Source: Squalus acanthias
Taxonomy: Eukaryota
Direction of reading: 5' to 3'
Assembly (NCBI GenBank): GCA_030390025.1
Contig: CM059431.1
Location: 129,830,001 to 129,894,000 of the forward strand
Length of the DNA: 64,000 nucleotides
Shown here: positions 7,301 through 56,560 of the stretch, piece after piece
Position numbering within the stretch: position 1 is the first letter of the stretch
Layout: each line of letters begins with the position of its first letter
Notes under the pieces: generated by a model
Databases searched by the model: none
Told to the model about the DNA's origin: nothing
Seen by the model: only the letters and a program-made list of their open reading frames with translations
Program-made: the position numbers and the translations under genes

Positions 7301-7754
7301 TATCTTTCACTTCCTCAAAGATTTTTGATTGATGATGTTTTGCTACATACAGCTTCTATATATCATATGTCTTATACTTATACGTGGAGTGATATTCTAA
7401 TATATGTGGACCGATTATGTGGTCCCATCACAGTGGTGGTGGAATATCTGCTTCTCGGTACTTGTGCACTGACATGACCTTGCCCAGGTTTGAGGTTAGG
7501 CCATTTAAAGGGATGTGGCTACACAGAGGGGAAAAAATCTTTCCGCCTTTAGAAAAGCTGAAAATAATTTTTTAAATATTTGTCAGCCTTTCTGAATGCT
7601 GTAATGGGGTGACAAAAAAAGGTGGCAGGCTAAATTCAAGTGAAGGCAAACCAAATACTGAGGTATGAAATTATGTCTGTGGGCAAGTGAAAGAAAGGGG
7701 CAGCTCCTGACTCCTATTTGATGGCGAGTGAAGTTGCTGCATGAGATAGGTGTA

Positions 7755-8588
7755 CTCTTCTGGTTAAAACAATAAAACTGTAACTTAACAGAAAACATTA
7801 AAAGAACCGTAACAACTTAAATTAAAATTGTATTCCTCGGCGTGATGATGCACTCCAGTCCCTGCGGTGCCCACCGGTCGTGGAAGGCCTTGAGCGTGCC
7901 GGCGGACACCGCGTGCTCCATTTCCAGGGCCACCTGGGCACGAACGTGGCCGCGGAAGAGAGGCAGGCAGTCGGGCTGAACGTCCCCCTTGACCGCCCAC
8001 TGCCTGGACCAGTTGATGGCCACTTTGGCCAGGCCCAGGAGCAGTCCCACGAGGAATTCCCCCGATCTGCCCGCTCCCCTCCACACCGGGTGACCAAAGA
8101 TCAGGAGCGTGGTACTGAAGTGCAGCCAAAAACCGAGGAGCAGCCCCTTCAAATAATGGAAGAGGGGCTGCAACCTCTCACACTCCATATATACATGGAA
8201 CACGGACTCCTCCAGGTCGCAGTAAAGGCAGGTGGCCTGGGAGTCCGTGAACCTACTTAAAACCATATTGTACAGGACTGCTCCGTGCAACACCCTCCAG
8301 GCCAAGTCCCCAATAGAAAAAGGGAGGACTCCCGCGTAGAGAGCCCTCCATTGGGGACCTCCACCTCCGCCGGACGGCAAGATGCTACGCCAAAGCGTGT
8401 CCGGACGGCAGACGAAGATGGCAAAGTGGAGAGTGTGCAGGAGCAGCCCATACAGGAAACCCATCCGTGCAGAATGAAAAGGCACGGAGGGCATTTCCCA
8501 GAGATGGCTCAAGTTGTGAGGCGCCGGTTCCCGAGAGGGGTTTCGGGGCTGGGCGCCGATGAGAATTCCGTCCGAACATGGGTCAATT
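7755..8588 (-). mobile_element. Tx1/L1-clade LINE 3' fragment, copy A
   Basis: C-terminal ORF2 with zf-RVT-like motif DLAWRVLHGAV…CLYCDLEESVFHVYMECERL; bounded by atgagataggtgta at 7741-7754 and 8589-8602. Confidence 0.85.
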
Positions 8589-8602
8589 ATGAGATAGGTG
8601 TA

Positions 8603-9432
8603 CTCTTCTGGTTGGGTGATTAAACGAATCGTCCGTAACTTAATAAAACATTAAATAAAACTTAACAAATTAAATTAAAATTTAATTGGCCGGGGTGATG
8701 ATGCACTCCAGTCCCCGCGGTGCCCACCGGTCGTGGAAGGCCTCAAGCGTGCCAGCAGACACCGCGTGCTCCATCTCCAAGGCCACCCAGGCGCGAACGT
8801 GGCTGCGGAAGAGAGGCAGGCAATCGGGCCGAACGACCCCCTCGACCGCCCGCTGCCTGGACCAGTTAATGGTTTTTTTGGCCAGGCCCAGGAGCAGTCC
8901 AACGAGGAGGTCCTCCGATCTGCCCGCTCCCCTCCGCACCGGTTGACCAAAGATCAGGAGCGTGGGACTGAAGTGCAGCCAAAAATCGAGGAGCTGCCCC
9001 TTCAGATAATGGAAGAGGGGCTGCAACCTCTCGCATTCCATATAAACGTGGAACACGGACTCCTCCAGGCCGCAGAAAAGGCAGGCGGCCTGGGAGTTCG
9101 TGAACCTATTTAAAAACCATATTGCACGGGACTGCTCCGTCCAGGCCAAGTCCCCAATAGAAAAAGGGAGGACTCCCGCGTAGAGAGCCCTCCATTGGGG
9201 ACCTCCGCCTCCGCTGAACGGCAAGATGGTGCGCCAAGGCGTGTCCGGACGGCAGACGAAGATGGCAAAGTGGAGAGTGTGCAGGAGCAGCCCGTACAGG
9301 AAACCCCTCCGTGCAGAATGAAAAGGCACGGAGGACATTTCCCCGAGTCGGCTCAAGTTGTGAGGCGCCAGTTCCCAAGAAGGTTTCGGGGCTGGGCGCC
9401 GATGAGGAATTTCGTCCGAATGTGGGTCAGTT
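8603..9432 (-). mobile_element. Tx1/L1-clade LINE 3' fragment, copy B
   Basis: Homologous to copy A (CLFCGLEESVFHVYMECERL); bounded by atgagataggtgta at 8589-8602 and 9433-9446. Confidence 0.85.
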
Positions 9433-9683
9433 ATGAGATAGGTGTAAGGAGTGTTTGTTCTGATTGGCACACTAAGGCACGCTTCCCACAAGACAGCACT
9501 GCCTGGCAGGAGGTGGATGACCAGGCTTAATACTGTCTACAGTATTTGCAGGATTTTAGAACAGTTATGAGATGAAATGGCATTCTTTAAGGACCTGATG
9601 CGGAGATGCCGGTGTTGGACTGGGGTGGACAAAATTGAGAGGTCGCACAACACCAGGTTATAGTCCAACAGTTTTATTTGAAA

Positions 9684-9721
9684 TCACAAGCTTTCGGAGT
9701 TACTACTCCTTCGTCGGGTGA
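9684..9721 (-). ncRNA. Minimal hammerhead motif, copy in the inverted arm
   Basis: Exact reverse complement of 11873-11910. Confidence 0.7.
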
Positions 9722-10281
9722 AGTAAAGAGATACAGAATCGCCAAAGCATATATAGATAGAGAACAATGCATGTGTACCTTACAATTGCAGACAACTAAA
9801 TTTAATCATCCTGACTGTTTATCTGCCGAGGTGTGATAAAGTTAATCAGGTCAGCCAGGAAGGTACCACATCAAAGACATAGCAAGATACAACTGAGACA
9901 ATGAGGTGGAGTCGCATGTGGTCTAACGTGTCAAAAGCTGCCGTCTGTATGTAAAACGATTAACTTTAAAATTTTTACTTTTTTACTGGGAATCACATCT
10001 GTGAACAAGCCACCGACGACTCGAGTCCGGATCACGTCATGTATCGTGACATAAACCCAAGATCCCGGTTGAGACCGTCTTCATGAGTGCGGAACTTGGC
10101 TATCAGTTTCTGCTCGATGATTTTGCGTTGTCGTGTTTTCCTAAGGCCGCCTTGGAGAACGCTTACCCGCAGATCCGAGGCTGAATGTCCTTGACTGCTG
10201 AAGTGTTCCCCGACTGGGAGGTAACAATCCTGCCTGGCGATTGTTGCACGGTGCTCGTTCATACGTTGTCTCTGTGTCTGC

Positions 10282-11562
10282 ATGGTCTCGCCGATGTACC
10301 ATGCCGCGATGCATTCTTTCCTGCAACGTATGACCTTCGACAACCATTTTTTTACCCAAACACACGGAACCGTCATGGGGACCAAATTCGCACCCCAATA
10401 CGCCAACATCTTCATGCACAAGTTCGAGCACGACTTCTTCGCTGCACAGGACCTCCAGCCAACGCTGTACACCAGATACATCGACGACATTTTCTTCCTT
10501 TGGACCCATGGCGAAGGATCACTGAAAAGACTACACGATAACATAAACAAGTTCCATCCCACCATCAAACTCACCATGGACTACTCCTCAGAATCGGTTT
10601 CATTCCTGGACACACGAATCTCCATCAAAGACGGACACCTCAGCACTTCACTCTACCGCAAGCCCACGGACAACCTCACGATGCTCCACTTCTCCAGCTT
10701 CCACCCTAACCACGTTAAAGAAGCCATCCCCTATGGACAAGCCCTGCGAATACACAGGATCTGCTCAGACGAGGAGGAACGCGATGGACACCTACGGACG
10801 CTGAAAAACGCCCTCGTAAGAACGGGATATGACGCTCGACTCATCGATCGACAGTTCCGACGGGCCACAGCGAAAAATCGCATAGACCTCCTCAGAAGGC
10901 GAACACGGGACACAACCAACAGGGTACCCTACGTCGTCCAGTACTTCCCCGGAGCGGATAAACTACGCCATGTTCTTCGCAGCCTTCAACATGTCATCGA
11001 TGACGACAAACACCTCGCTAAGGCCATCCCCACGCCTCCACTACTTGCCTTCAAACAGCCGCCTAACCTCAGAAGTACCATCGTTCGCAGCAAATTACCC
11101 AGCTTTCAGGATAACAGCGACCACGACACCACACAACCCTGCCACGGCAAACTCTGCAAGACATGCCAGATCATCAACACAGATACCATCATCACACGTG
11201 AGGACACTACCCACCAGGTACATGGTACATACTCATGTGACTCGGCCAACGTTGTCTACCTCATACGTTGCAGGAAAGAATGCACCGCGGCATGGTACAT
11301 CGGCGAGACCATGCAGACACTGAGACAACGTATGAACGAGCACCGTGCAACAATCGCCAGGCAGGATTGTTACCTCCCAGTCGGGGAACACTTCAGCAGT
11401 CAAGGACATTCAGCCTCGGATCTGCGGGTAAGCGTTCTCCAAGGCGGCCTTAGGAAAACACGACAACACAAAATCATCGAGCAGAAACTGATAGCCAAGT
11501 TCCGCACTCATGAAGACGGTCTCAACCGGGATCTTGGGTTTATGTCACGATACATGACGTGA
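10282..11562 (+). CDS. Penelope-like RT C-terminal half + Cys-rich linker + GIY-YIG endonuclease (426-aa open frame; first ~17 codons come from the inverted arm)
   Basis: GTVMGTKFAPQYANIFM, RYIDDIF (catalytic), SFLDT, LYRKPT; linker CHGKLCKTC; NVVYLIRC…WYIGET…QRMNEH…HF…E…GLN. Confidence 0.9.
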   Translation: MVSPMYHAAMHSFLQRMTFDNHFFTQTHGTVMGTKFAPQYANIFMHKFEHDFFAAQDLQPTLYTRYIDDIFFLWTHGEGSLKRLHDNINKFHPTIKLTMDYSSESVSFLDTRISIKDGHLSTSLYRKPTDNLTMLHFSSFHPNHVKEAIPYGQALRIHRICSDEEERDGHLRTLKNALVRTGYDARLIDRQFRRATAKNRIDLLRRRTRDTTNRVPYVVQYFPGADKLRHVLRSLQHVIDDDKHLAKAIPTPPLLAFKQPPNLRSTIVRSKLPSFQDNSDHDTTQPCHGKLCKTCQIINTDTIITREDTTHQVHGTYSCDSANVVYLIRCRKECTAAWYIGETMQTLRQRMNEHRATIARQDCYLPVGEHFSSQGHSASDLRVSVLQGGLRKTRQHKIIEQKLIAKFRTHEDGLNRDLGFMSRYMT

Positions 11563-11872
11563 TCCGGACTCGAGTCGTCGGTGGCTTGTTCACAGATGTG
11601 ATTCCCAGTAAAAAAGTAAAAATTTTAAAGTTAATCGTTTTACATACAGACGGCAGCTTTTGACACGTTAGACCACATGCGACTCCACCTCATTGTCTCA
11701 GTTGTATCTTGCTATGTCTTTGATGTGGTACCTTCCTGGCTGACCTGATTAACTTTATCACACCTCGGCAGATAAACAGTCAGGATGATTAAATTTAGTT
11801 GTCTGCAATTGTAAGGTACACATGCATTGTTCTCTATCTATATATGCTTTGGCGATTCTGTATCTCTTTACT

Positions 11873-11910
11873 TCACCCGACGAAGGAGTAGTAACTCCGA
11901 AAGCTTGTGA
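11873..11910 (+). ncRNA. Minimal type I hammerhead ribozyme motif in the PLE 3' repeat (core variant CCGACGA)
   Basis: tcac-CCGACGA-a-ggag-tagtaa-ctcc-GAAA-gctt-gtga. Stem I TCAC/GTGA, stem II GGAG/CTCC, palindromic stem III AGCT. Confidence 0.7.
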
Positions 11911-12179
11911 TTACAAATAAAACTGTTGGACTATAACCTGGTGTTGTGCGACCTCTCATACTTTAAGGAACCAGGCAAGGTTAAGTTACCTAACGGTACC
12001 ATGTACCAGGTAGATGGCTCAAGATTGTATGCCACAAAATGTTGCATGTCAACCTGTTCTACATTTACTACCAAGCCTTCTTACCCTAAAAGCTGAAAAC
12101 ATTGTCACACTAACATCTTCCAGGGGTTTCACACACCAAACCATTGCAACACAAACTTGGTATTTACTGACACCCAGAA

Positions 12180-12660
12180 TGGGCAGCCAGTGCATCTCCA
12201 GCAATGGCTTCTCTTCCTACCTTCACACCATCAACACTTTGACTAATTTAGTCCAAGAGTCCCCCAGGATCTACCCTTGGCGACATAATTTGCAGGCATA
12301 AGGCAAGCTTCCATACGTATAGTTCTGACACTTGCTTCTACCATTCCACCACTTCCAGTGATCCAATGACAACCGCCATGCGGTCAGATTACCTGTCTGA
12401 TATCAAGTCATGGTTATGTCAAAACTTACTCCAGTTGAACATTGAGAAAACTGAAACCATTGTTTTTGGTCCTCACAATGAACTGCACTCCCTCACCACC
12501 AATACTATTCTCCTCTCCAGCCACTTGGTCAGGCTTAACCAGACCATGTGGAACCCCATAGTCCTGTTGGACCCAGAGCTGAGCTTCAAAGCCTATATCT
12601 TGTTTCATTCTCTAATGCCCTCCTTGCTGGTCTCCCATCCTCTGCCATCCATAAATTCCA
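12180..12660 (+). mobile_element. Old L2 LINE fragment
   Basis: LSDIKSWLCQNLLQLNIEKTETIVFGP. Confidence 0.75.
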
Positions 12661-13039
12661 ATATGTCCACTTTAGTGACACACCATTTGTTTGAGATTTT
12701 TGATTTCCCTTAAAGGAGAATGAAATATGCAGCTGAGCACAACATAAGAGCTTTTAAACTGCTGAGCTTTGCTAAACAGATACTCTGCCAGAATTTAGCT
12801 GTTCCATCCTTGAATTCCCCAGCTCAACAGGTGAGCAAATTTGTACTCGGCCATTTTAATGCCCACCTGCAGAAAATTCCCACATCTCTGAAAGCTGATT
12901 AACAATTTTTAACAAGCAACTGTGGATTTTTCTCACACACACAAAAAATCACTCCCAGGTTTAGTTTATCTCCCCAGTTTTAATACTTTCTCTGTTATTG
13001 CTGGCATTAAACAACAGCAGAAAACATCCCTAGCTTATA

Positions 13040-13800
13040 TATTTAAAAATCAGAGTACGAACATTTGTCCAGTTTTTGCTGTACTGATAATGGCACGGCT
13101 GTCAGCACTCACCGTTATTACTGGGTAAAACTGACAGCAACTTCTGGGGTCTGCACGTGCTCGGTTAAACGCGGAAATCTGGAAGTTGCTGTCAGAAATA
13201 CCCTGCTCCTTCACAGGGTGCGCTGTTGCAGTCTTTGCCGATGGAATCTGCACAGAAATCACTGTTAAGACGTGAACTTAAATGAATTACCCACTATTTT
13301 CGCACAAAAAGCCGATGAAATACTTAAACCTTGTTCAGTCAGGAGTAACTGAGTTTTTAATGGTGTAGTAAGTCATAATTACTGCTGAACAACTTCTCTG
13401 GCCCTGAAAAATTAATTTTATAAGTGTGGAGTATCATTCCCTCAGAAGAAAATTAATGTTGCAGATTTACATTTTTTTAAGTTTCTGTGTTTTTCTATTT
13501 AAGTTTCTCCCTTAATCCCATGTGTATGTCCCAATCTTCATTTTGCTTTCTGTACAATGATTTAAATGTGATTTATATTTCCTGTTTTTTACTTCCTGCT
13601 TTGCTGTCCGTGAGGATTCTTCAATCTGATTGGTTGATCAGCCTGCCTTTTGTCCTGTTCGCAAGACATCACAGATCCCCTGTAGAGTGTGCTGAATTCA
13701 AACTGATGTCGGAGAAGGAGCCTGCACTCAGGAGTTCGCTAAAACTTTGTGGGCAGCTTTTTTCGAGGTGAATGATGCCACTGATCACAAAATCCGGGCC
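13040..13800. mobile_element. Old Harbinger-like non-autonomous element
   Basis: Right terminus cacaaaatccgggcc matches the terminus type at 3787. Left end degenerate. Confidence 0.5.
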
Positions 13801-14279
13801 GTAGTGTCCCTAGTTTGTGCGATGAGTGCACAGCAAGATAAAATTAAATCTGAATACAGGAGAAATGCAGTTTATTAAAAACATTTAACATCAAAAGTCT
13901 GATAATCATAGGGCAGCATTTTCAAATTAACGTGAAGAGTTTGTAGTTTCCTTTATGATTTTTTTAATGATTCTGTTCTACGTTTGTAGTTTACTTCAGT
14001 ACTCCTGATTATTTCACTTTTGAATGTTCAGTGAATATAAATGTATCTCTGTTTCTGGTATGTCTATTGCGTATGCAATGCCTTTTTATGAATTTCAATC
14101 ACATTTTCAAGAAAAAAGTTAAATTATTCGAACAAAGCGATGTTCACAAATGGAGCCGATGTACTTTTGTTGCAAGTTTCAACGTGGCCAAACTATTTAG
14201 TGTACCCCCCTCTTATCTAACGCTAATGGTTATACTGTATTCTTGTTTTAAAGTGCATTTGTATTTCATATTGCTAAGT

Positions 14280-14814: not shown

Positions 14815-14977
14815 ATGGGGTTGAAGATGAAGCGCGCATCTTGTGCGAGTGGGGCTGTGTTGCTTTTCCTGGTGGGGGTGAGTTTGCAGTCTGAGCCCAA
14901 CTGTGAGGAGGTGAAGAAAGTTTTCCAGCTGCGTCAAATCGGAGCCTCCAAGTGGCTTCCAGAGACCCCCAGACCAG
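14815..14977 (+). CDS. GPC5: Glypican-5-type gene, coding exon 1 (signal peptide + start of Cys-rich domain)
   Basis: ATG in strong Kozak context (aagATGg) at 14815. Translates MGLKMKRASCASGAVLLFLVGVSLQSEPNCEEVKKVFQLRQIGASKWLPETPRPG, resembling the GPC5 N-terminus (hydrophobic signal, CEEV-K-F motif). Ends at donor CAG|GTGAG after 163 nt (phase 1), in frame with exon 2. Confidence 0.92.
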
Positions 14978-15625
14978 GTGAGCACCAACGTTACTCTACA
15001 TTCCATAAAATCCGCGCACTATCCAAACTGTCTGCAAATGCGTATACATTTTAGGCACTGTCTCTAGGTTAAAGGTAATATCCATAATTTATGTACACTG
15101 CATAATTTTATAAGCACCGTCCCTATAACAATGCTACACGTTATAGGTACTCCCCGTGTCGTATCCATACATTACACTGAGTGCATAATATAGACACTGC
15201 CCAATTAGTAGTGAAGAAACATTTAAAACTCCTACACTAAGACCTTCTGGCAAAACAAATCCGAAAGGCAAGGAATCCTGTGATGGGGATCGCCTCATGC
15301 CAGGACAGTGGCTTTTTTTTTGTGAGGTGGGGGTTAAAATATAGGAGGTGATTTCCTCCCCGCTTCTCCTGCTGTGCTGCCGTAAATTTGACGGAAACCC
15401 CTTTTACGTGCGTAAGCAGCGTTTCTGCCAAAGTTACATCAGTGCAGTGGGAGCAAGTGGGCTTCATTACTATTTCCATTGATTTGCATATAAAAAATTA
15501 ATTTCATTTAATCAGGAAACCATACTAAAGGAATCAATTGATAAGTAGTTCCAAGGTATTGACTGTAGAGGCAGCCATAGGAATTTCACTTTCCTTTTAT
15601 ATGATTTTGCACTGCAGTGGCATCG

Positions 15626-16840
15626 TTCCATTGATGTGTACATGAACTTTCAAAAGGCGTTTGATAAAGTACCACTTAATAGACTTGTTAGTAAAATTGA
15701 AGGCCATAGGATTAAAGAGGCAGTTGGCTATGTGAATACAAAATTAGCCAAGGGACAGAAAGCAGAGTAGTGGTGAATGGCTGTTTTTCCAGATTGGAGT
15801 GAAATGTGCAGTGGTGTCCCCGAGGGGTCAGTGTTGGAACCACTGCTCTTTTTGATATATATTAATGTCCTGGACCTGGGTATATAGGGCATAATTTCAA
15901 AGTTTGCAGATGACACGAAAATCAGAAATGTAGTAAACAGTGAGGAGGATAGTAACAGACTCCAGGAGGTCATAGACAGACAAGTGAAATGGTTGGACAC
16001 ATGGTAGATAAAATTTAACGCAGAGAAGTGTGAAGTGATTCATTTTGGTCGGAAGAATGAGGAGAGGCAATATGAACTAAATGGTACAATTTTAAAGATG
16101 GTGCAGGAGAAGTGAGACCGGGGGGTGTATGTACACAAGTCTTTGAAGGTGGCAGGACAAGTTGAAAAGGCTGTGTTTAAAAAAAAAAAGCGTATGGGAT
16201 CCTTGGCTTTATAAATAGAAATGAGAAGTCGCACAACACCAGGTTATAGTCCAACAGATTTATTTAAAATTACAAACTTTCGGAGCTGTCGCCCCTTCTT
16301 CAGGTAGGGTAGCTGTGAGAGAATCTCCCAGAATTCACAATATAAACACAGAAAAAATGGAAAAATAAAGGCATAAATAGAGGCATAGGGTACAAAAGGA
16401 CTGAAGTAATCCTTTATAAATTACTGGTTAGGCCCCAACTGGAGTATTGTGGCCAATTCTGGGCACCACTTTTTAGAATGGATGTCAAGGCTTTAGAGAG
16501 GGTGCAGAGGAGATTGACAAGAATGGTTCCAGGGATGAAAGACTTTAGTTGGAGAGACTGGAGACTCTGTGGTTGTTCTCCTTGGAACAGAGAAGGTTAA
16601 GGGGAGATTTGATAGAGGTGTTTAAAATCATGAAGGGTTTTGATAGAGTAAATAAGGAGAAACTATTTCCAGTAGCAGAAGGGTCGGTAAGCAAAGGGCA
16701 CAGATTTAAGGTAATTGGCAAAAGAACCAGAGGTGATAGGAATTAAAAAATAAATTGGATAGCTCTTTCAAAGAGCTGGCACCGGCATGATGGGCTGAAT
16801 GGCGGCCTCCTGTACTGTATCTTTCCATGATTCTATGACT
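15626..16840 (+). mobile_element. CR1 LINE 3' fragment with nested PLE mini-insertion
   Basis: gtggtgtccccgaggggtcagtg…aagtttgcagatgacacg (VP-GSV, KFADDT), LFSLEQRRLRGDLIEVFKIMKG, tail atgattctatga. Confidence 0.9.
16220..16372 (-). mobile_element. PLE 3'-end mini-insertion with degenerate hammerhead (16270-16307)
   Basis: tgagaagtcgcacaacaccaggttatagtccaacag matches 9636 onward. 9-bp TSD ataaataga (16211-16219, 16373-16381). Confidence 0.85.
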
Positions 16841-23618: not shown

Positions 23619-23711
23619 CATGGTGTTTCATTCAATGTATCTCCTACTTTGTGATGCCAGTAGTCAGTAACTTATAGTGTGCTTTGTGTTGTTGATGCAT
23701 GATTTAATTAT

Positions 23712-23737
23712 CATGATGCGGAGATGCCGGTGTTTTT
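23712..23737 (-). mobile_element. 26-bp PLE tail-only insertion
   Basis: tgatgcggagatgccggtgtt (23714-23734) is identical to 9596-9616. Perfect 10-bp TSD atttaattat (23702-23711, 23738-23747). Confidence 0.85.
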
Positions 23738-24238
23738 ATTTAATTATGGCATACTTTCCTAAAATAATCTGTGGATGATTATAGGAACATTTTATGTCCA
23801 GTGTATATATTGGATAGAATTTACTGAACTGCATGTTATTTCTTAAAACTGCACTAATGACATAATGGGGGAAAATGTTTGTCCTTCTGTTTGTTGCAGA
23901 CCTGAAACTCTCTCCAAAATTGGTACCTTCCCATGAAGTGCAGTGTGTATATAATAAAATGTTGGATGGGTGTCAGTGTATGGTGAGGCAGCAATCCAAT
24001 TATCAGGTCCATATGATGAATATAAACTTCACTTTTTATGCAGTCATCAGATAAAATAACAGAAAATGATTTTCAATGTTCTAATCTAATCTTGTTCAGA
24101 TAACATTCATGAACTTTTAAAAATTCAGTCTTAAACATTTTATAATATCTGAACTTAATTAGATTTCAGCTTTGTAATTCCCCTCTTTTTTATTCCATTC
24201 TCATGGTACAAAAATGTATGACATGGAGGAAACACTTG

Positions 24239-27900: not shown

Positions 27901-27954
27901 TGTATAAAATGTTTTGCTATTTCCTTTATTTGCCCTATTTCCTCAAACCTTCTA

Positions 27955-28309
27955 CAGGAAACTCTTTATTAACCGGCACCGGCGTGGTGCCGGTTAATCA
28001 AAAAGTCCGGATAACAGAGAGTTATATCTCCCAACGTACGAGAACCCCGTATACATTGACATGCGCCTGCATTCGGAGCTCCGTCTCCCCGGGGACCGCC
28101 AGCTGACCATCTGTCGTGTCCGCTGCCTACCTGGGCTGCACATTCTCCTCCCAATCTACACGCTCCGATACAAGGCAAACGCCTCGGGGTTTTTAAAAAA
28201 ATTACTTTTAAACGAGAGATGAAGGAAAACCCCGGTTACCTACTCAAGAATTTTGCCGGTTAAGAGAGATTTCCGGATATTTGGGTGCCGGTTAATGAAG
28301 AGTTTCCTG
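27955..28309. mobile_element. Tc1-mariner (pogo/Tigger-like) MITE, 355 bp
   Basis: TIR CAGGAAACTCTTTATTAACCGGCACC / GGTGCCGGTTAATGAAGAGTTTCCTG; TA TSD. Confidence 0.9.
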
Positions 28310-29284
28310 TATTAGGCTTTCTAATAATTTCTGCTTCCTTTACATTTTTCTATATTTGGCTCGATTTTCCTTTTATATTATTAGCCTGAATTTATTAAAT
28401 GTCTTTGTAAACTCTCATTTTAATAATCTACTCATCCAAGGAACTCCTGCTTTTACTCTACCACTTTGACTTGTGGGAATATATCTAAAATATCTAATTT
28501 CTGTTAGGCAAGGATATTAAGGGTTACGGAACCAAGATGGGTAAATGGAGTTGAGATACAGGTCAGCCATGATCTAATTGAATGGCGGAATAGGCTTGAG
28601 GGGCTGATGTAGTCTGTATGAGCTCATGTTTATGAAGAGTGGAGGATGGGAAATTGGTTCAGAGAGCATTGGAATACTCGAGTCTGGAGTTGACATAGGA
28701 ATTGATGAGGGTTTCAGCAGCAGATGGGCTGAGGTGGGGCAGAGGCGGGTGATGTTACGAAGAGGGAACCACCTAATTTCTTGATCTAGTTGCAGTTGCC
28801 TGATTCTGAGCTCTGTCTACCCACTTCTCACCCATCCTGTTTTCTTCTTTCAGGAATAGTGGTCTAAACTTGTGCCTAGTGCTCGGGCCTATTCACCGAA
28901 CTAACTTCCTTCCACTAGATTGACTTTGGGGCCATCTTCTGCACACCTCCCTCCCACAGTTTCATATTTTCAGTAGTGGTGGTTAGGCCTTGAGCCTGCC
29001 ACCTCAGACTTTCTGACTACCCAATCCTCTGCATACCTGAACCTCTCCTTTTCCCTCGGAGTTCTTAGTGTCTTATTTTCTTTCTGGCTAAACCAGCACT
29101 GAACGCTGTACAAACTATACCATATGTATGGTGTTAACTTTTCAAGTGCCTCAGTAAACTAACAGACTTATTTCATGATAGTGCTCTTAAACACGTTTTC
29201 TAAATAAACTTAATTTTTATATTAGTGTGGGTTATGCTCTGAAACTGTCATGGGACTGGTTTATATGGTGATGGACATGGTAAG

Positions 29285-37808: not shown

Positions 37809-38330
37809 AGTTAGGTAGGGAGTTCTAGAACTTAGGAACAGCGATATATTTTCAAGTCAGGATGGTGTGTGACTTGGAGGGGAACTTGGAGGTGGGGTGT
37901 TCCCATGTGCCTGCTACCCTTGTCCTTTTAGATTGTAGAGGTCGCGGGTTTGGGAGGTGATGTCAAAGAAGCCTTGGCAAGTTGTTGCACTGCATCTTGA
38001 AGATGATACACATTGCAGCCATGGTGTGCCGGTGGTGGAGGGAGTGAATGTTTAAGGTAGTGGATGGGGTGCCGATCAAGCAGACTGCTTTGTCCTGGAT
38101 GGTGTCGAGCTTCATGAGTGTTGTTGGAGCTGCACTCATCTAGGCAAGTGGAGTGAATTCCATCACACTCCTGACTTGTGCTTTGGGGAGTTAGAGGTGA
38201 GTCACTCACTGCAAAATGCCCAGCCTCTGACCTGCTCTTAAAAGCCACAGTATTTATGTAGTTGGTCCAGTTAAGTTTCTTGTCAATGGTGACCCCCAGA
38301 ATGTTGATGGTGGGGGAATCAATGTTCGTA

Positions 38331-38694
38331 CAGGAAACTCTTTATTAACCGGCACCGATGGGACCGGCGTGGTGCCGGTTAATCAAAAAGTCCGGATAAC
38401 GGAGAGTTATATCTCCCAACGTACGAGAGCCCCGTACACATTGACATGCGCCTGCATTCGGAGCTCCGTCTCCCCGGGGACCGCCAGCTGACCATCTGTC
38501 GTGTCCGCTGCCTACCCGGGCTGCACATTCCCCTCCCAATCTACACGCTCTGATACAAGGCAAACGCCTCGGGGTTTTTTTAAAAGTTAATTTTAAGCGA
38601 GAGATGAAGGAAAACCCCGGTTACCTACTCAAGAATTTTGCCGGTTAAGAGAGATTTCCGGATATTTGGGTGCCGGTTAATAAAGAGTTTCCTG
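38331..38694. mobile_element. pogo/Tigger-like MITE, 364 bp
   Basis: Perfect 26-bp TIR CAGGAAACTCTTTATTAACCGGCACC; TA TSD; near-identical to 27955-28309. Confidence 0.92.
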
Positions 38695-40026
38695 TAATGC
38701 CATTGAATGTCAGTGGGAGGTGGTTAGACTTTCTCCTGTTGGAGATGGTCATTACCTGGCACTTGTTTGGTGCGAATGTTACTTGCCACTTATCAACCTA
38801 AATGTTGTCCAGGTCTTGCTGCATGTGGGCCCAGACTGCTTCATTATCTGAGGAATTGCGAATAGAATTGAACACTGTGCAGTCATCAACGAACATCCCC
38901 ACTTCTGACCTTTATGTTGGAGGGAAGGTCATTGATGAAGCAGTTGAAGATGGTTGGGCTGAGGACATTACCCTGAGGAACTCCTGCAGTGATGTCCTGG
39001 GGCTGAGATGATCAGCCTCCAACAACTACAACCATCTTCCTTTGTGTTAGGTATGGCTCCAGCCTGATCAATGTTCCCTCTAATTTTTATTTGTACTGAG
39101 CGGGCCACAAACTCCTCAGAGCACGACGTTTTTGTCCATGGGCAAATTTTATGACAACAACAACTACTTTCATTCACCTGAGCCAAATGAAATGATTCTG
39201 CACTGATGACTTCTTTTGTTAAGTGTTCAGTAATTGGAACAGTCTCCTCTTAAAGCTTGGTTTTATTACACATACAATGCGTCTCCCTCACTAAAAACCA
39301 GTTGATTCTAACTTGCTGAAGTCAAAATCGATACAGATCTCGTACACCTTTAGCCGCGCATACGCCTTCCTTGCTCTTACCAGAAACCCATTTTTCTGAA
39401 CAAGCAAGGTCACTGCGAAGCGATCGGCAGCTCTAATTGTTAAGAAAGGACGGCGGGAATAGAATACCACATAGTTCTTCAAGTTAGATTGAAGTTTAGT
39501 AACAATTTTTGAGATTTATGAGAGATGTTGCCTTTTGGTTTCAGGGTTGGTTTAGGATGCATTCTGTGCAATAGGTACGTGCAAATCAGTTTTACTATTT
39601 TAAAAACATGTTTCCCCAAGAAGATTTGGCATGCACTATGTTTTTAAATGTACAATGTATCGTGTTTGAATTTTATGCAAATCTTTGAACTCGCCCGCTC
39701 ATTTTTTTTGGCCAAGAAAGGAAATCGATTTGAAAGAGGTGCAGCGTTTGCGGAAAGCTGCTAAGTGCAGGTTGGGGAGGGTTGAAGGTGTCTGCCTCTT
39801 CGCAAGCGCTTTAACCTGAGCAGGATAGCCAAGGGATCAAGTCTGTGATTGTTTAAACCGTGTCCTAGCAACCGTGCGCACCCTGAACAAGCTCATGACT
39901 GCTAGGGAAGGATTCAAAGATATTTACTGACATTGCTGCACGCTGCCGCTCTGCCTTGATACAACTGCCACGCGAGTGAGTCTCTGGCTCAATCCTCTCT
40001 GAACTGCACCACAAAGGAACGTATTG

Positions 40027-46072: not shown

Positions 46073-46124
46073 TATTAAAAATATTGTTCCCATTTCTTTT
46101 TATAAAAAAAAGAAAAATCATGTA

Positions 46125-46549
46125 CAGGAAACTTTCGTTTATCCGGCATCGACGGGACCGGCGTGGTGCTGGTTTATCGAAAGTACCGGATAACGGAGAG
46201 TTATATCTACCGAGGCTATTTTTAACAAAGAGACTCCAGGCAGCGCGGGAGAATCAACTCCTGCTACTGCAATGTTTCGGACTTCTGACAGCGCCAGGAG
46301 GCCGAGTAGTGGCACTTTTGAAAAGTACCCCTACTGACTAAATCGGCGTTCGCGGACTCGGACTCTGACTCGGGATCGGCAACATTGCCGGTTATTTGAG
46401 AGGAGTTTTCGGAGCACTCGGCGTTCGCGGAGACTCGGCTGCGACTCGGCAACATTGCCGGTTATTTGAGAGGAGTTTTCGGAGGATGATTTTTGCCGGT
46501 TAAGCGAGAATTCCGGATATTTGGGTGCCGGATAAACGAAAGTTTCCTG
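46125..46549. mobile_element. pogo/Tigger-like MITE, second subfamily, 425 bp
   Basis: TIR CAGGAAACTTTCGTTTATCCGGCA / TGCCGGATAAACGAAAGTTTCCTG; TA TSD; internal ~70-bp duplication. Confidence 0.9.
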
Positions 46550-47179
46550 TATTTAATTTTTAAAGTTTTTTTGGGAACGTGGCATTTTATAAACAATCCT
46601 TTCACCTCTGCAAAAATCAGAATTCCATTGAAACCCCTCCAACATTTAAGTCGGGCGTCATTCCACGGAGCTATTACAAATAGTTTGTAAAATTGATGGG
46701 AGTTTTAAAATCTGATATTGGGAGCTGGGTTTCCGTTGGAGGAGCAGCCTGAGACTGACTTACTGCTGGCATTTTTTACCGAAATGGCAGCTCTCTGGGC
46801 AGCAGTGTTCTCACGAACATGTCTCAGTAAAAATGCCTGGCTTTTCCCTCGCTTCCTTCAGTCTGCATTTTATACATTTGGACAAAGAGCTCGCACTTAG
46901 AGAGCACAATACTCTTACCTAGCCATGACTGAGAGCGTGTTCATCACCTCCAATCCAGACACACGTACTGCACTACACTAGAGCTGAAAGCCAGTCAAAT
47001 GAAATTCTCCACCTCCCCCGCCAACACCCCCACCCCCAGCTGCACTTTATCTCTCCCTCTCTGCACCCGTACACACATTGGGTATTGGGCCCCTTCTTCC
47101 CCGGCCCCAAGCAACTCCAGCTTTCCACTGCGAGATCTTCCAGATTGCTGAGGGGCCACGCACCTTAGAACGAACATTG

Positions 47180-50824: not shown

Positions 50825-50986
50825 GTTCTGATCTTCAGGTATGCACGTCGAAGGATCCAACATGCTGCACAAGAAAGATGGAGGAGCGATACCAAGCAGC
50901 ATCTCGGCAAGATATTCAAAATTTGCTTCAAACATCCAGCTCAACTCTGAAATTTTTAATATCACGAAATGCGGCTGCTTTTCAAG
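50825..50986 (+). CDS. GPC5: Glypican-5-type gene, coding exon 2 (162 nt, phase 1-1)
   Basis: Acceptor ttttcctttag|G and donor CAAG|gtaac. Translates (G)[53 protein letters not shown], closer to GPC5 (…[19 protein letters not shown]) than to GPC3 as recalled. Not in the ORF track. Confidence 0.95.
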
Positions 50987-53900: not shown

Positions 53901-54473
53901 CCTTCGGCCCATCGTGTCCGCGCCGGCCATCAAGCCCTGTCTATTCTAATCCCATTTTCCAGCACTTGGTCCGTAACCTTGTATGATGTGGCGTTTCAAG
54001 TGCTCATCTAAATGCTTCTTGAATGTTGTGAGGGTTCCTGCCTCTACCACCCTTTCAGGCAGTGAGTTCCAGATTCCAACCACCCTCTGGGTGAAAAAGT
54101 TGTTCCTCAAATCCCCTCTAAACCTCCTGCCCCTTACCTTGAATCTATGCCCCCTGGTTATTGACCCCTCTACTAAGGGGAAAAGTTCCTTTCTATCTAC
54201 CCTATCTATGCCCCTCATAATTTTGTACACCTCAATCAGGTCCCCCCTCAGCCTTCTCTGCTCGAAGGAAAACAACCCCAGCCTGTCCAGTCTCTCTTCA
54301 TAGCTGAAGCGCTCCAGCCTAGGTAACGTCCTGGTGCAGCTCCTCTGCACCCTCTCCAATGCAATCACATCCTTCCTATAGTGTGGCGACCAGAACTGCG
54401 CACAGTATTCGAACTGTGGCCTAACTAGCGTTTTGTACAGCTCCATCATAACCTCCCTGCTCTTATATTCTAT

Positions 54474-54766
54474 AAAAGTGAGAAGTCGCACAACACCAGG
54501 TTATAGTCCAACAGTTTTATTTGAAATCACAAGCTTTCGGAGCTGCTGCTCCTTCGTCAGGTGAAGTGAAGGAATACAGATCGGCAAAGCATATATAGAC
54601 AGAGAACAATGCCTGTGCAGCGTACAATGTCAGACGACTACAGTTAATCTTTCTGACTGCCTTTTATCACACCTCGGCAGAGAGACAATCAGATCAGTCA
54701 GGAAGACATTATATCAAAGACATAGCAAAATACAACTAGGACAATGAGGTGGGGGTCACAGGGTCA
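54474..54766 (-). mobile_element. PLE 3'-end insertion (293 bp) with canonical hammerhead core (54527-54564)
   Basis: Homologous to about 9631-9920. 12-bp TSD cttatattctat (54462-54473, 54767-54778). - strand tcac-CTGACGA-a-ggag-cagcag-ctcc-GAAA-gctt-gtga. Confidence 0.88.
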
Positions 54767-56560
54767 CTTATATTCTATGCCTCGGCTAATGAAGGCAAGT
54801 ATCCCATATGCCTTTTTAACCATCTTATCCACCTGTCCTGCTGCCTTCAGGATCTATGTACATGCACACCAAGGTCCCTCTGATCCTCTGTCCTTCTTGT
54901 GGTCCTACCATTCATTGTGTATTCCCTTGCCTTGTTAGTCCTCCCAAAATGCATCGCCTCACACTTTTCAGGGTTAAATTCCTTTTGCCACTGTTCTGCC
55001 CATCTAACCAGCTCATCTATATCGTCCTGTAGCCTGAGGCTTCCCTCCTCGCTATTTACCACTCCACCAATTTTCGTGTCATCTGCAAACTTACTGATCA
55101 TACCTCCTACATTCATATCTAAATCATTAATGTACACTACAAACAGCAAAGGACCCAGCTCCGATCCCTGTGGTACATTACTGGACACAGGCTTCCAGTC
55201 ACGAAAACAACCTTCGACCATCACCCTCTGCCTCTTGCCACTAACCCAATTTTGGATCCAATGTGCCAAATTGCCCTGGATCCCATGGGCTCTTACCTTC
55301 TTGACATGTCTCCCATGCGGAACTTTGTCAAAAGTCTTACTGAAGTCCATGTAGACTACATCAACTGCACTACCCTCATCCACACACATAGTCACCCCCT
55401 CTCAAAATTCAATCAAATTGGTTAGACATGATCTCCCCCTGACAAAGCCATGCTGACTATCCTTGCCTCTCCAAGTGGAGACTAATTCTGTCCCTCAGAA
55501 TTTTTTCCAATAATTTCCCTACCACTGATGTTAGGCTCACTGGCCTGTAATTCCCTGGTTTATCCCTACTACCCTTCTTGAATAATGGTACTACGTTAGC
55601 TGTGGCCAGAGAGGTTCTGAAAATTTGTGTCAGAGCCCCTGTAATCTCCTCCCTTGCCTCACACAGCAGCCTGGGATACATCTCGTCTGGGCCTGGGGAT
55701 TTATCCACTTTTAAGCCCGCTAAAACCGTTAGTACCTCCTACCTCCTCAATACTAATTTGTTCAAGTATATCACAATCCCCCTGCCTGATTTCTATGCCT
55801 ACATCGTCCTTCTCCATAGTGAACACAGATGCAAAATATTCATTTAAAACCTCACCCACATCTTCCGGCTCTACACACAGATTGCCACTTTGGTCCCTAA
55901 TGGGCCCTAATCTTTCCCTGGTTATTCTCTTGCCCTTAATATACTTATAAAACACCTTGGGATTTTCCTTTTATTTTGCCCGCCAGTGTTTTTTCATGCT
56001 CCCTCTTCGCTCTCCTAATTTCTCTTTTAAGTACCCCCCTGCACTTTCTATACTTCTCTGGGGCTTCCACTGTTTTTAGTCCTTTGTATCTGCCAAAAGC
56101 CTCCCTTTTTTTCCTAATCCATTCTCGTATATCCCTTGACATCCAGGGTTCCCTGGGCTTGTTGGGAAAATGTTGGCGTTGTACTCTCTCTATTTCCTTT
56201 CTGAAAGACTCCCACTGCTCTGATGTGGATTTTCCTACTAGTAACTGATCCCAGTCCACTTTGGCCAGATCCTGCCTTATCATATTAAAATCGGCCTTCC
56301 CCCAATTTAGAACCTTTATTTCCGGTCCATCTTTGTCCTTTTCCATGACTACCTTAAATCTCACCGAATTATGGTCACCGTCACCAAAATGCTCTCCTAC
56401 TGACACTTCTACCACTTTTCCGGTTACATTGCCTAGAATTAGGTCCAGTACTGCCCCCTCTTGTCGGACTTTCTACATGCTGGCTCAAAAAGCTCTCCTG
56501 GATGCACTTTAAGAATTCCGCACCCTCTGAGCCTTTCACACTCTGACTATTCCAGTTAAT

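Follow-up and report, generated by a model that had tools for sequence, protein, structure and literature searches.

Here we describe an inverted-repeat insertion found in a stretch of 64,000 nucleotides of the Squalus acanthias genome (assembly GCA_030390025.1, contig CM059431.1), which was analyzed as a whole and is referred to as the window. With a probability of about 0.88, we read it as a lineage-specific event, a single insertion of a highly abundant Neptune-type Penelope-like element (PLE), non-autonomous from the start and without a function of its own. The element totals ~2.37 kb, is 5′-truncated, and consists of two truncated copies lying head to head and facing outward, the left one of 738 nt with its tail and the right one of 1625 nt without a tail. 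The features to which the text refers, including the target-site duplication (TSD) and three further insertions of the same kind within the window, are as follows:

9585-9593, plus strand: left copy of the TSD, 9-bp exact core (9583-9593 under an 11-bp reading)
9594-9635, minus strand: PLE tail, 40 nt (9596-9635) plus 2 nt, on the left (inverted) arm only
9636-10333, minus strand: left arm, an inverted 5′-truncated copy comprising the greater part of the endonuclease-coding sequence, the 3′ UTR and the pLTR
9684-9721, minus strand: left-arm hammerhead motif of the minimal type, its core position 4 being C
10330-10334, plus strand: inversion junction (10333/10334), with 1-nt microhomology and an in-frame ATG created at 10330
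10334-11260, plus strand: spacer, with RT motif B′, YIDD, thumb, CX4CxxC linker and the beginning of the GIY motif
11261-11958, plus strand: right arm, with the remaining GIY-YIG endonuclease, 3′ UTR and pLTR, terminating where the tail begins
11873-11910, plus strand: minimal hammerhead motif of the right arm, core at 11877-11883, predicted cut after 11906
11961-11969, plus strand: right copy of the TSD, 9-bp exact core (11959-11969 under an 11-bp reading)
14815-14980, plus strand: first coding exon of GPC5, outside the element, matching the same shark glypican-5a protein as exon 2
near 16.3 kb: short copy with a tentative 9-bp TSD
23712-23737: tail-only insertion of 26 nt with a 10-bp TSD, ending in ATG
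near 54.5 kb: 283-nt copy with a 12-bp TSD

The two arms, of 698 nt each, form the longest inverted repeat of the window. An earlier note, made from the letters alone, had reported these arms with at least four mismatches, and the base-by-base comparison gives exactly four substitutions in 698 positions (11285, 11321, 11468 and 11913) and zero gaps. The same note had placed an RT spacer of ~930 bp between them; its size is 927 nt and, since the GIY motif straddles 11261, the arms correspond to the endonuclease plus the 3′ UTR and pLTR, the spacer holding RT motifs B′ to E, the thumb and the linker. That an inverted truncated copy is a known feature of PLEs, as had also been stated, agrees with what is described in PMC8557442 and PMC3846280. 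Contigs of four of the 20 public sequencing runs available, two from the same species (X2 and X5) and two from related species (X6 and X8), were compared with positions 10295-13600 of the window.

Regarding the coding content, the frame 10225-11562 is free of stops; its opening 36 codons read the left arm in antisense. From the inversion junction onward it is homologous to PLE-type proteins, the alignment starting near residue 465 of the best match (P0002, 881 aa, 64% identity over 100% of the query), and 51 longer homologues were found. RT motif A, which sits at residue 426 of P0002, is absent from the present copy. Because the N-terminal half and motif A are missing, and with them the first catalytic aspartate, the copy is, judging from its frame, non-autonomous and cannot mobilize itself; an autonomous PLE copy was rejected on the same ground, the ORF lacking motif A and the N-terminal domain. 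The stop-free RT/GIY-YIG frame of the earlier note is thus indeed without stops, but it is half an ORF and carries a private Ala-to-Val codon change in motif B′ at 10373, where the family depth is all C in the four runs. Downstream, YIDD lies at 10477-10488, the CX4CxxC linker at 11140-11166 and the GIY-YIG core, which crosses the right-arm boundary, at 11251-11304. A CCHH motif with two Cys inside this core is present, and further endonuclease motifs (CCHH; catalytic R, H, E and N) were located at 11329-11343, 11383-11394, 11476-11493 and 11518-11526, ahead of the stop codon at 11560-11562. The Pfam matches to RVT_1 (E 1.1e-4) and GIY-YIG (E 6.6e-4) both fall under the curated cut-offs. The layout, an RT followed by a C-terminal GIY-YIG domain in a single ORF, is that of EN+ PLEs.

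Within PLEs, a CX2-5CxxC linker marks the Neptune and Nematis clades and is absent in Penelope/Poseidon, the Neptune group being reported as paraphyletic (PMC8557442). From the linker to the next conserved Cys there are 23 aa in the present copy, compared with 25-27 in the four Neptune rows of Fig. S2 of that paper and 7 in three named Nematis rows (all counted by eye). By its linker motif and spacing, the element is therefore placed as a Neptune-type PLE, in accordance with the Cys-rich RT-EN linker of Neptune type that the earlier note had proposed. The reduced linker of Nematis led us to reject that clade, and Penelope/Poseidon was rejected because it would lack the CX2-5CxxC linker. In Naiad/Chlamys, an N-terminal endonuclease and no canonical hammerhead would be expected, whereas the present element has its endonuclease at the C-terminus and does carry a hammerhead motif. 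A DNA transposon or MITE with terminal inverted repeats was also discarded, given that the arms encode an endonuclease, that the two ends differ by 40 nt, and that one-armed solo copies with their own TSDs exist in the window. A 30-nt pLTR pattern gave 0 matches in metagenome contigs, and no earlier report of shark Neptune elements was found in a search of largely open-access literature.

The element is bracketed by a duplication whose 9-bp core is exact; for two boundaries drawn at random in the same window, a match of this kind at a distance of 0-3 nt has a probability of 6.5e-5. The TSD of probably 11 bp previously proposed is real as a duplication, but it reaches 11 bp only with one mismatch, and it does so in two ways, 9583-9593/11959-11969 or 9585-9595/11961-11971. 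Because the match of the related species starts three bases before the 9-bp core, 11959-11960 would be target DNA, which suggests the former pair as the favored duplication. Either reading leaves one or two bases unexplained. On the left side, the 2 nt at 9594-9595 probably belong, with one change, to a downstream ATG. The 40 nt at 9596-9635 are element sequence: 83 contigs of X2 and 62 of X5 continue past 11958, and the first 10 letters of the consensus of these loose ends agree with the tail at nine positions. Taking together the five element 3′ ends of the window, three stop 0-5 nt into the tail and two at its far end. An optional tail of 30-40 bp has been described for PLEs, its two ends being two start sites of reverse transcription in vitro (PMC11167929). 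In the same line, an inverted 5′-truncated copy with a one-sided tail of 30-40 bp is typical of PLEs (PMC8557442), and the locus presents the whole set attributed to EN+ elements, namely 5′ truncation, inverted truncated copy, one-sided tail of that length and TSD. Neighboring Tx1-like fragments were considered as insertions targeting the tail and rejected, as they stop ~150 nt short of the element and are flanked by a 14-mer of their own.

In both X6 and X8, the match of the orthologous contig starts exactly at 11958 and is preceded by 184 or 168 unaligned letters, and the pLTR ends of other copies align abundantly in these two runs. Judged from the start of the alignment and the unaligned letters, the site is empty in both relatives, so that the empty-site comparison put forward in the earlier note comes out with the insertion absent from the two species. 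Furthermore, the 3′ UTR bins 11627-11848 have almost no cover in either relative at 88% likeness, which hints at a lineage-specific subfamily. The depth summed over the element is ~10^5 times that of the flank, a figure that speaks of great abundance and is not a copy number. Against this background, both arms carry an A at 11675/9919, where 99.96% of the X2 family depth is C; the rare A accounts for ~130 of 332,127 depth units, compared with ~11-12 for the single-copy flank, a rough value that again is not a copy number. This A and a core change in the hammerhead motif (U4C), both common to the two arms, suggest a single donor. Together, the single TSD, the rare variant in both arms and the site empty in two relatives make one integration event, as originally proposed, likely.

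The arms have since diverged by 0.57% (95% interval 0.16-1.47%). One mismatch is derived on the left arm, a change from Leu to Gln where the eight aligned homologues are all hydrophobic. Two are derived on the right arm, a change from Arg to His where the eight homologues have Arg, and 11913, by comparison with two other copies; the fourth may have arisen on either arm. The flanks differ from the relatives by 51 of 1150 and 53 of 1172 letters, i.e., ~4.5% with gaps uncounted, which places the insertion at ~13% (3.5-33%) of the depth of the split. Using the rate of 7e-10 per generation obtained in the epaulette shark (PMC10587355), and hence a rate from another species, this would amount to ~4 million generations (2-20 over the interval of the rate). 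Errors of the RT would shorten the age estimate. The description of the element as young thus holds in relative terms, but perhaps millions of generations have elapsed; low divergence between arms need not mean a recent origin in a slowly mutating lineage.

These data also bear on whether the structure exists as assembled. In favor of a fold-back artefact, PLE structures of this kind are known to trouble assemblies (PMC8557442), and none of the contig pieces listed, beyond which there were 64,801 more, spans the inversion junction. Nonetheless, changes derived on both arms fit independent drift and do not fit such an artefact, and neither the one-sided tail, the improbable TSD match nor the unique flanks would be expected from it. 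In X2, the right junction is crossed by a contig of 280 nt whose depth is that of single-copy sequence and which leads out of the arm into the flank, although with 25 element-side letters, below the bar of 31, its support for that junction is only suggestive; in X5, of which ~55% of the run was read, none of the listed contigs lies at the right junction. Moreover, opposite-strand joints, two of the 15 joints listed from a total of 138, are present in other copies. An artefact is in our opinion very improbable. Even less credit is given to two independent insertions at one spot, later homogenized by gene conversion. Copies of the family are very numerous, and gene conversion between inverted repeats is possible, but a single TSD surrounds both copies, no target DNA lies at the junction, and the identity of the arms extends to the last base of both ends.

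How would one event have produced two opposed copies? Given the identity of the element, we consider it slightly better than an even bet that reverse transcription was primed by both strands of the cut target, one at each end of the tail. The RT-endonuclease would cut the two strands of the target ~10 bp apart, and each 3′-OH would prime reverse transcription of RNA from a single donor, whether a tandem molecule or a pair of RNAs. Synthesis would begin at the distal tail end on the top strand and at the proximal tail end on the bottom strand. Both cDNAs would stop early and be end-joined at a 1-nt overlap, after which the arms would drift independently, accumulating the four substitutions. In fact, the 3′-OH of each flank is joined to the reverse complement of the element 3′ end, at the far end of the tail on the left and at the near end on the right. 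The native element letters 5′ of 10334, known from loose contig ends at 10333, overlap the left arm by 1 nt. Cleavage and extension of the two target strands by a PLE protein have been shown in vitro, with two start sites of reverse transcription that bound the tail (PMC11167929); both-strand extension from two start sites, applied by analogy to the present element, would be the simplest account of its structure. As a general proposal, that head-to-head PLE insertions arise by double target-primed reverse transcription on the pLTR, one per tail end, is put forward tentatively, with odds somewhat short of even. No published twin-priming model of PLE inversions was found in the largely open-access literature searched.

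The main competitor, which we hold to be unlikely though deserving attention, is fold-back or self-priming, in which a single cDNA would turn back on itself or jump to an antisense template, the tail being subsequently trimmed off one end by the endonuclease. Self-priming from palindromes at inverted junctions has been proposed (PMC3846280), and the tail has been ascribed to endonuclease resolution of an intermediate (PMC8557442). The rare variants common to both arms are accounted for equally well, and a weak hairpin of 6-8 bp (-6.5 kcal/mol) is present around the truncation point at 11261. However, no palindrome was found at the inversion junction 10333/10334, where the microhomology amounts to a single nt, and a loop as long as 927 nt would result. 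In addition, the 40 nt of the left arm are absent from the right-hand cDNA, so that plain copying back along the latter is impossible and an extra trimming step is required. A single locus cannot separate double priming from fold-back with trimming. It is improbable, in turn, that an older donor locus already of this shape gave rise to the entire inverted unit, be it through retrotransposition of a read-through transcript or through duplication at the DNA level. A small sub-lineage does seem, from the rough X2 depth, to have the rare A at 11675; against this, a 700-bp RNA duplex would be a poor template for the RT, and the TSD adjoins both outer ends, which coincide with the two priming sites.

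The pLTR of each arm was said to carry a hammerhead motif. Following the criteria of PMC4209133, both arms do present the minimal PLE motif, with a 4-bp helix I, an extra A after A9, the pair G10.1-C11.1, a 5-bp helix II, GAAA and a palindromic AGCU at 15.2-16.2, but the conserved core CUGANGA is altered to C at position 4 and the two motifs lie on opposite strands. Copies at 54.5 and 16.3 kb retain U at this position, and U4C reduces hammerhead activity considerably in vitro (PMC3088659). The metazoan PLE hammerheads described in PMC4209133 share the helix I of 4 bp, the base after A9, the G10.1-C11.1 pair and the palindromic 15.2-16.2, and opposite-strand pairs were already noted in that work; the present motifs differ from them by U4C, by a helix II of 5 instead of 7-8 bp and by having no same-strand partner. 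Rfam returned no match with E up to 1 in positions 8000-14000, nor at the gathering score across the whole window. The folds of the motifs (z -1.06 and -0.77) are no more stable than those of shuffled sequences, which holds for all six folds computed on hammerhead and tail (z -0.02 to -1.06). Minimal PLE hammerheads require a same-strand dimer and cleave poorly (PMC4209133). The two motifs being on opposite strands, a single transcript cannot form an active dimer; any RNA would have one sense motif, buried by the duplex. The hammerheads are passengers in the pLTR.

From the perspective of the host, the question is whether the insertion affects its surroundings. The earlier note had situated it ~2.9 kb upstream of the GPC5 start, and the ATG, at 14815 or 14827, is indeed ~2.86 kb from the right arm. 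GPC5 exon 2, at 50830, has a Pfam Glypican match and is 98% identical to shark glypican-5a, with which exon 1 agrees at 75%; a PDB search with exon 1 gave weak glypican-3 matches only, and an Atlas search with exon 2 gave no match. A read-through transcript had been expected to form a perfect hairpin of ~700 bp. In silico, an RNA across both arms folds almost fully, with 694 of 698 pairs on the plus and 696 on the minus strand, but not perfectly, its longest exact run being 444 bp. Such a hairpin RNA is a possible by-product that would require read-through. None of the datasets listed for the flank was of RNA, a finding without bearing on its expression. Symmetric TATATA elements exist at 9750 and 11839, as does AATAAA at the outer end of each arm; the sense pLTR promoters of the arms would point outward, away from each other. 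The cruciform potential invoked at the DNA level is improbable with a 927-nt spacer. In yeast, breakage at inverted repeats drops by 80% with a 9-bp spacer (PMC8053094), although in long single-stranded DNA repeats lying far apart are able to pair (PMC10164571).

A function as a cis-regulator of GPC5, with an outward pLTR promoter directed at the gene, as a source of hairpin RNA, endo-siRNAs or A-to-I editing, or through the 410-aa protein opened by the junction ATG is held to be quite improbable, even though an effect on GPC5 would matter more than the insertion itself. The near-complete pairing of the arms and the TATATA and AATAAA signals speak for it, as do the siRNAs that inverted Penelope copies yield in Drosophila (PMC3681739) and the predicted frame for half an RT plus endonuclease, which starts at 10330 and continues without a stop across a GIY-YIG domain of intact appearance. 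This open frame, however, needs no selection, because at the present age only ~2.7 substitutions are expected in 927 nt, and the three coding mismatches and the private change are all non-synonymous. Moreover, the insertion is missing in two relatives ~4.5% diverged, the sense promoters of the two arms would point apart, and in so abundant a family one locus would add little to the small-RNA pool.

The value of the locus is rather that of a tidy specimen, whose one-sided tail, TSD and 1-nt junction constrain how PLE inverted repeats form, and that of a presence/absence marker between closely related sharks. Double priming, if true, would take the place of self-priming in explaining PLE inverted repeats, would extend the both-strand chemistry with two start sites, shown in vitro for a Poseidon element, to a second clade, and would make this locus a clean genomic trace of the process in a Neptune-clade element; copies of this kind are so numerous in a shark genome that the matter lends itself to counting.

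In L1 twin priming, cDNA synthesis likewise starts from the two strands of the target and its products are joined head to head; the inverted part corresponds to upstream RNA, so that no inverted repeat arises. Here, in contrast, both primers would start at the pLTR end, resulting in a long inverted duplication. Among PLEs, Neptune-1_Ac, DrerioNep1, Neptune1_Nv and Penelope1_XT have in common with the present element the C-terminal GIY-YIG with CCHH and the long-spaced CX2-5CxxC linker; Neptune is reported to favor microsatellites (PMC8557442), whereas the target here is not a microsatellite. PAc, a Poseidon of Anolis carolinensis, likewise has two classes of 3′ ends bounding an AC-rich tail and a hammerhead shortly upstream, and both target ends here carry the element 3′ end, as the both-strand extension of PAc predicts (PMC11167929). 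It belongs, however, to a different clade, the linker zinc finger present here being absent in Penelope/Poseidon, and its tail lies 111-118 nt into the ORF, while that of the present element appears, from one mini-insertion, to end at the ATG. A matching architecture is known from Adineta vaga, in Pen2a_Av, with its inverted pLTR and 9-bp TSD, and in a derivative of Pen2 on scaffold 304 (PMC3846280); there, as here, an inverted copy lies head to head at the 5′ end, with a TSD of 9-10 bp, a one-sided tail of 31 bp and a TATA readable both ways. The shark element differs in its 698-nt arms, which reach into the endonuclease, in having no upstream direct pLTR, in the loss of half the ORF and in a junction free of palindromes. 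It is, in sum, a real but ordinary case, a dead and truncated insertion in a configuration already published for PLEs in Adineta Pen2a.

One PLE insertion in the window contains distal tail sequence and nothing else, and two further insertions are one-armed copies of the 3′ end:

23702-23747, including flanks: tail-only PLE insertion, 26 nt
54462-54778: one-armed PLE 3′ end, 83% identical, with a 12-bp duplication
16211-16381: one-armed PLE 3′ end, 91% identical, with a tentative 9-bp duplication

The tail-only insertion, whose last letters are ATG, is surrounded by an AT-rich target duplication of 10 bp and would represent a minimal product of reverse transcription begun at the distal start site. 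Both one-armed ends carry the canonical U at hammerhead position 4, and the host site of each is apparently an older LINE-like fragment.

In the main element, an in-frame ATG arises at the inversion junction, and the resulting frame (10330-11562) could possibly encode a 410-aa protein comprising half of the RT and the whole GIY-YIG endonuclease.

Repeats other than PLEs were also found in the window:

7741-9446, minus strand: two tandem, 5′-truncated Tx1-like LINE 3′ fragments; weak zf-RVT match (E 0.053)
46104-46570: a second inverted pair, small, with 45-nt arms spaced by 377 nt

The LINE fragments are about 87-93% alike, and one identical 14-mer occurs at 7741, 8589 and 9433, as if the first copy's target duplication had served as the insertion site of a second. 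The repeat containing the small inverted pair recurs at 27943-28348 and 38328-38733, and looks like a MITE family.

Another copy of the PLE family was observed in X5, a sequencing run from a second sample of the species, where the pLTR end, extended by 10 nt of tail, is fused to the linker region (11958 to 11149); this joint is a direct partial-tandem junction. Finally, related PLE RT/EN segments are annotated within turtle KRAB zinc-finger isoforms and a bamboo-shark PPP1R12A-like isoform (P0010-P0012, P0047 among the protein homologues), and these may be either exonised copies or annotation errors.
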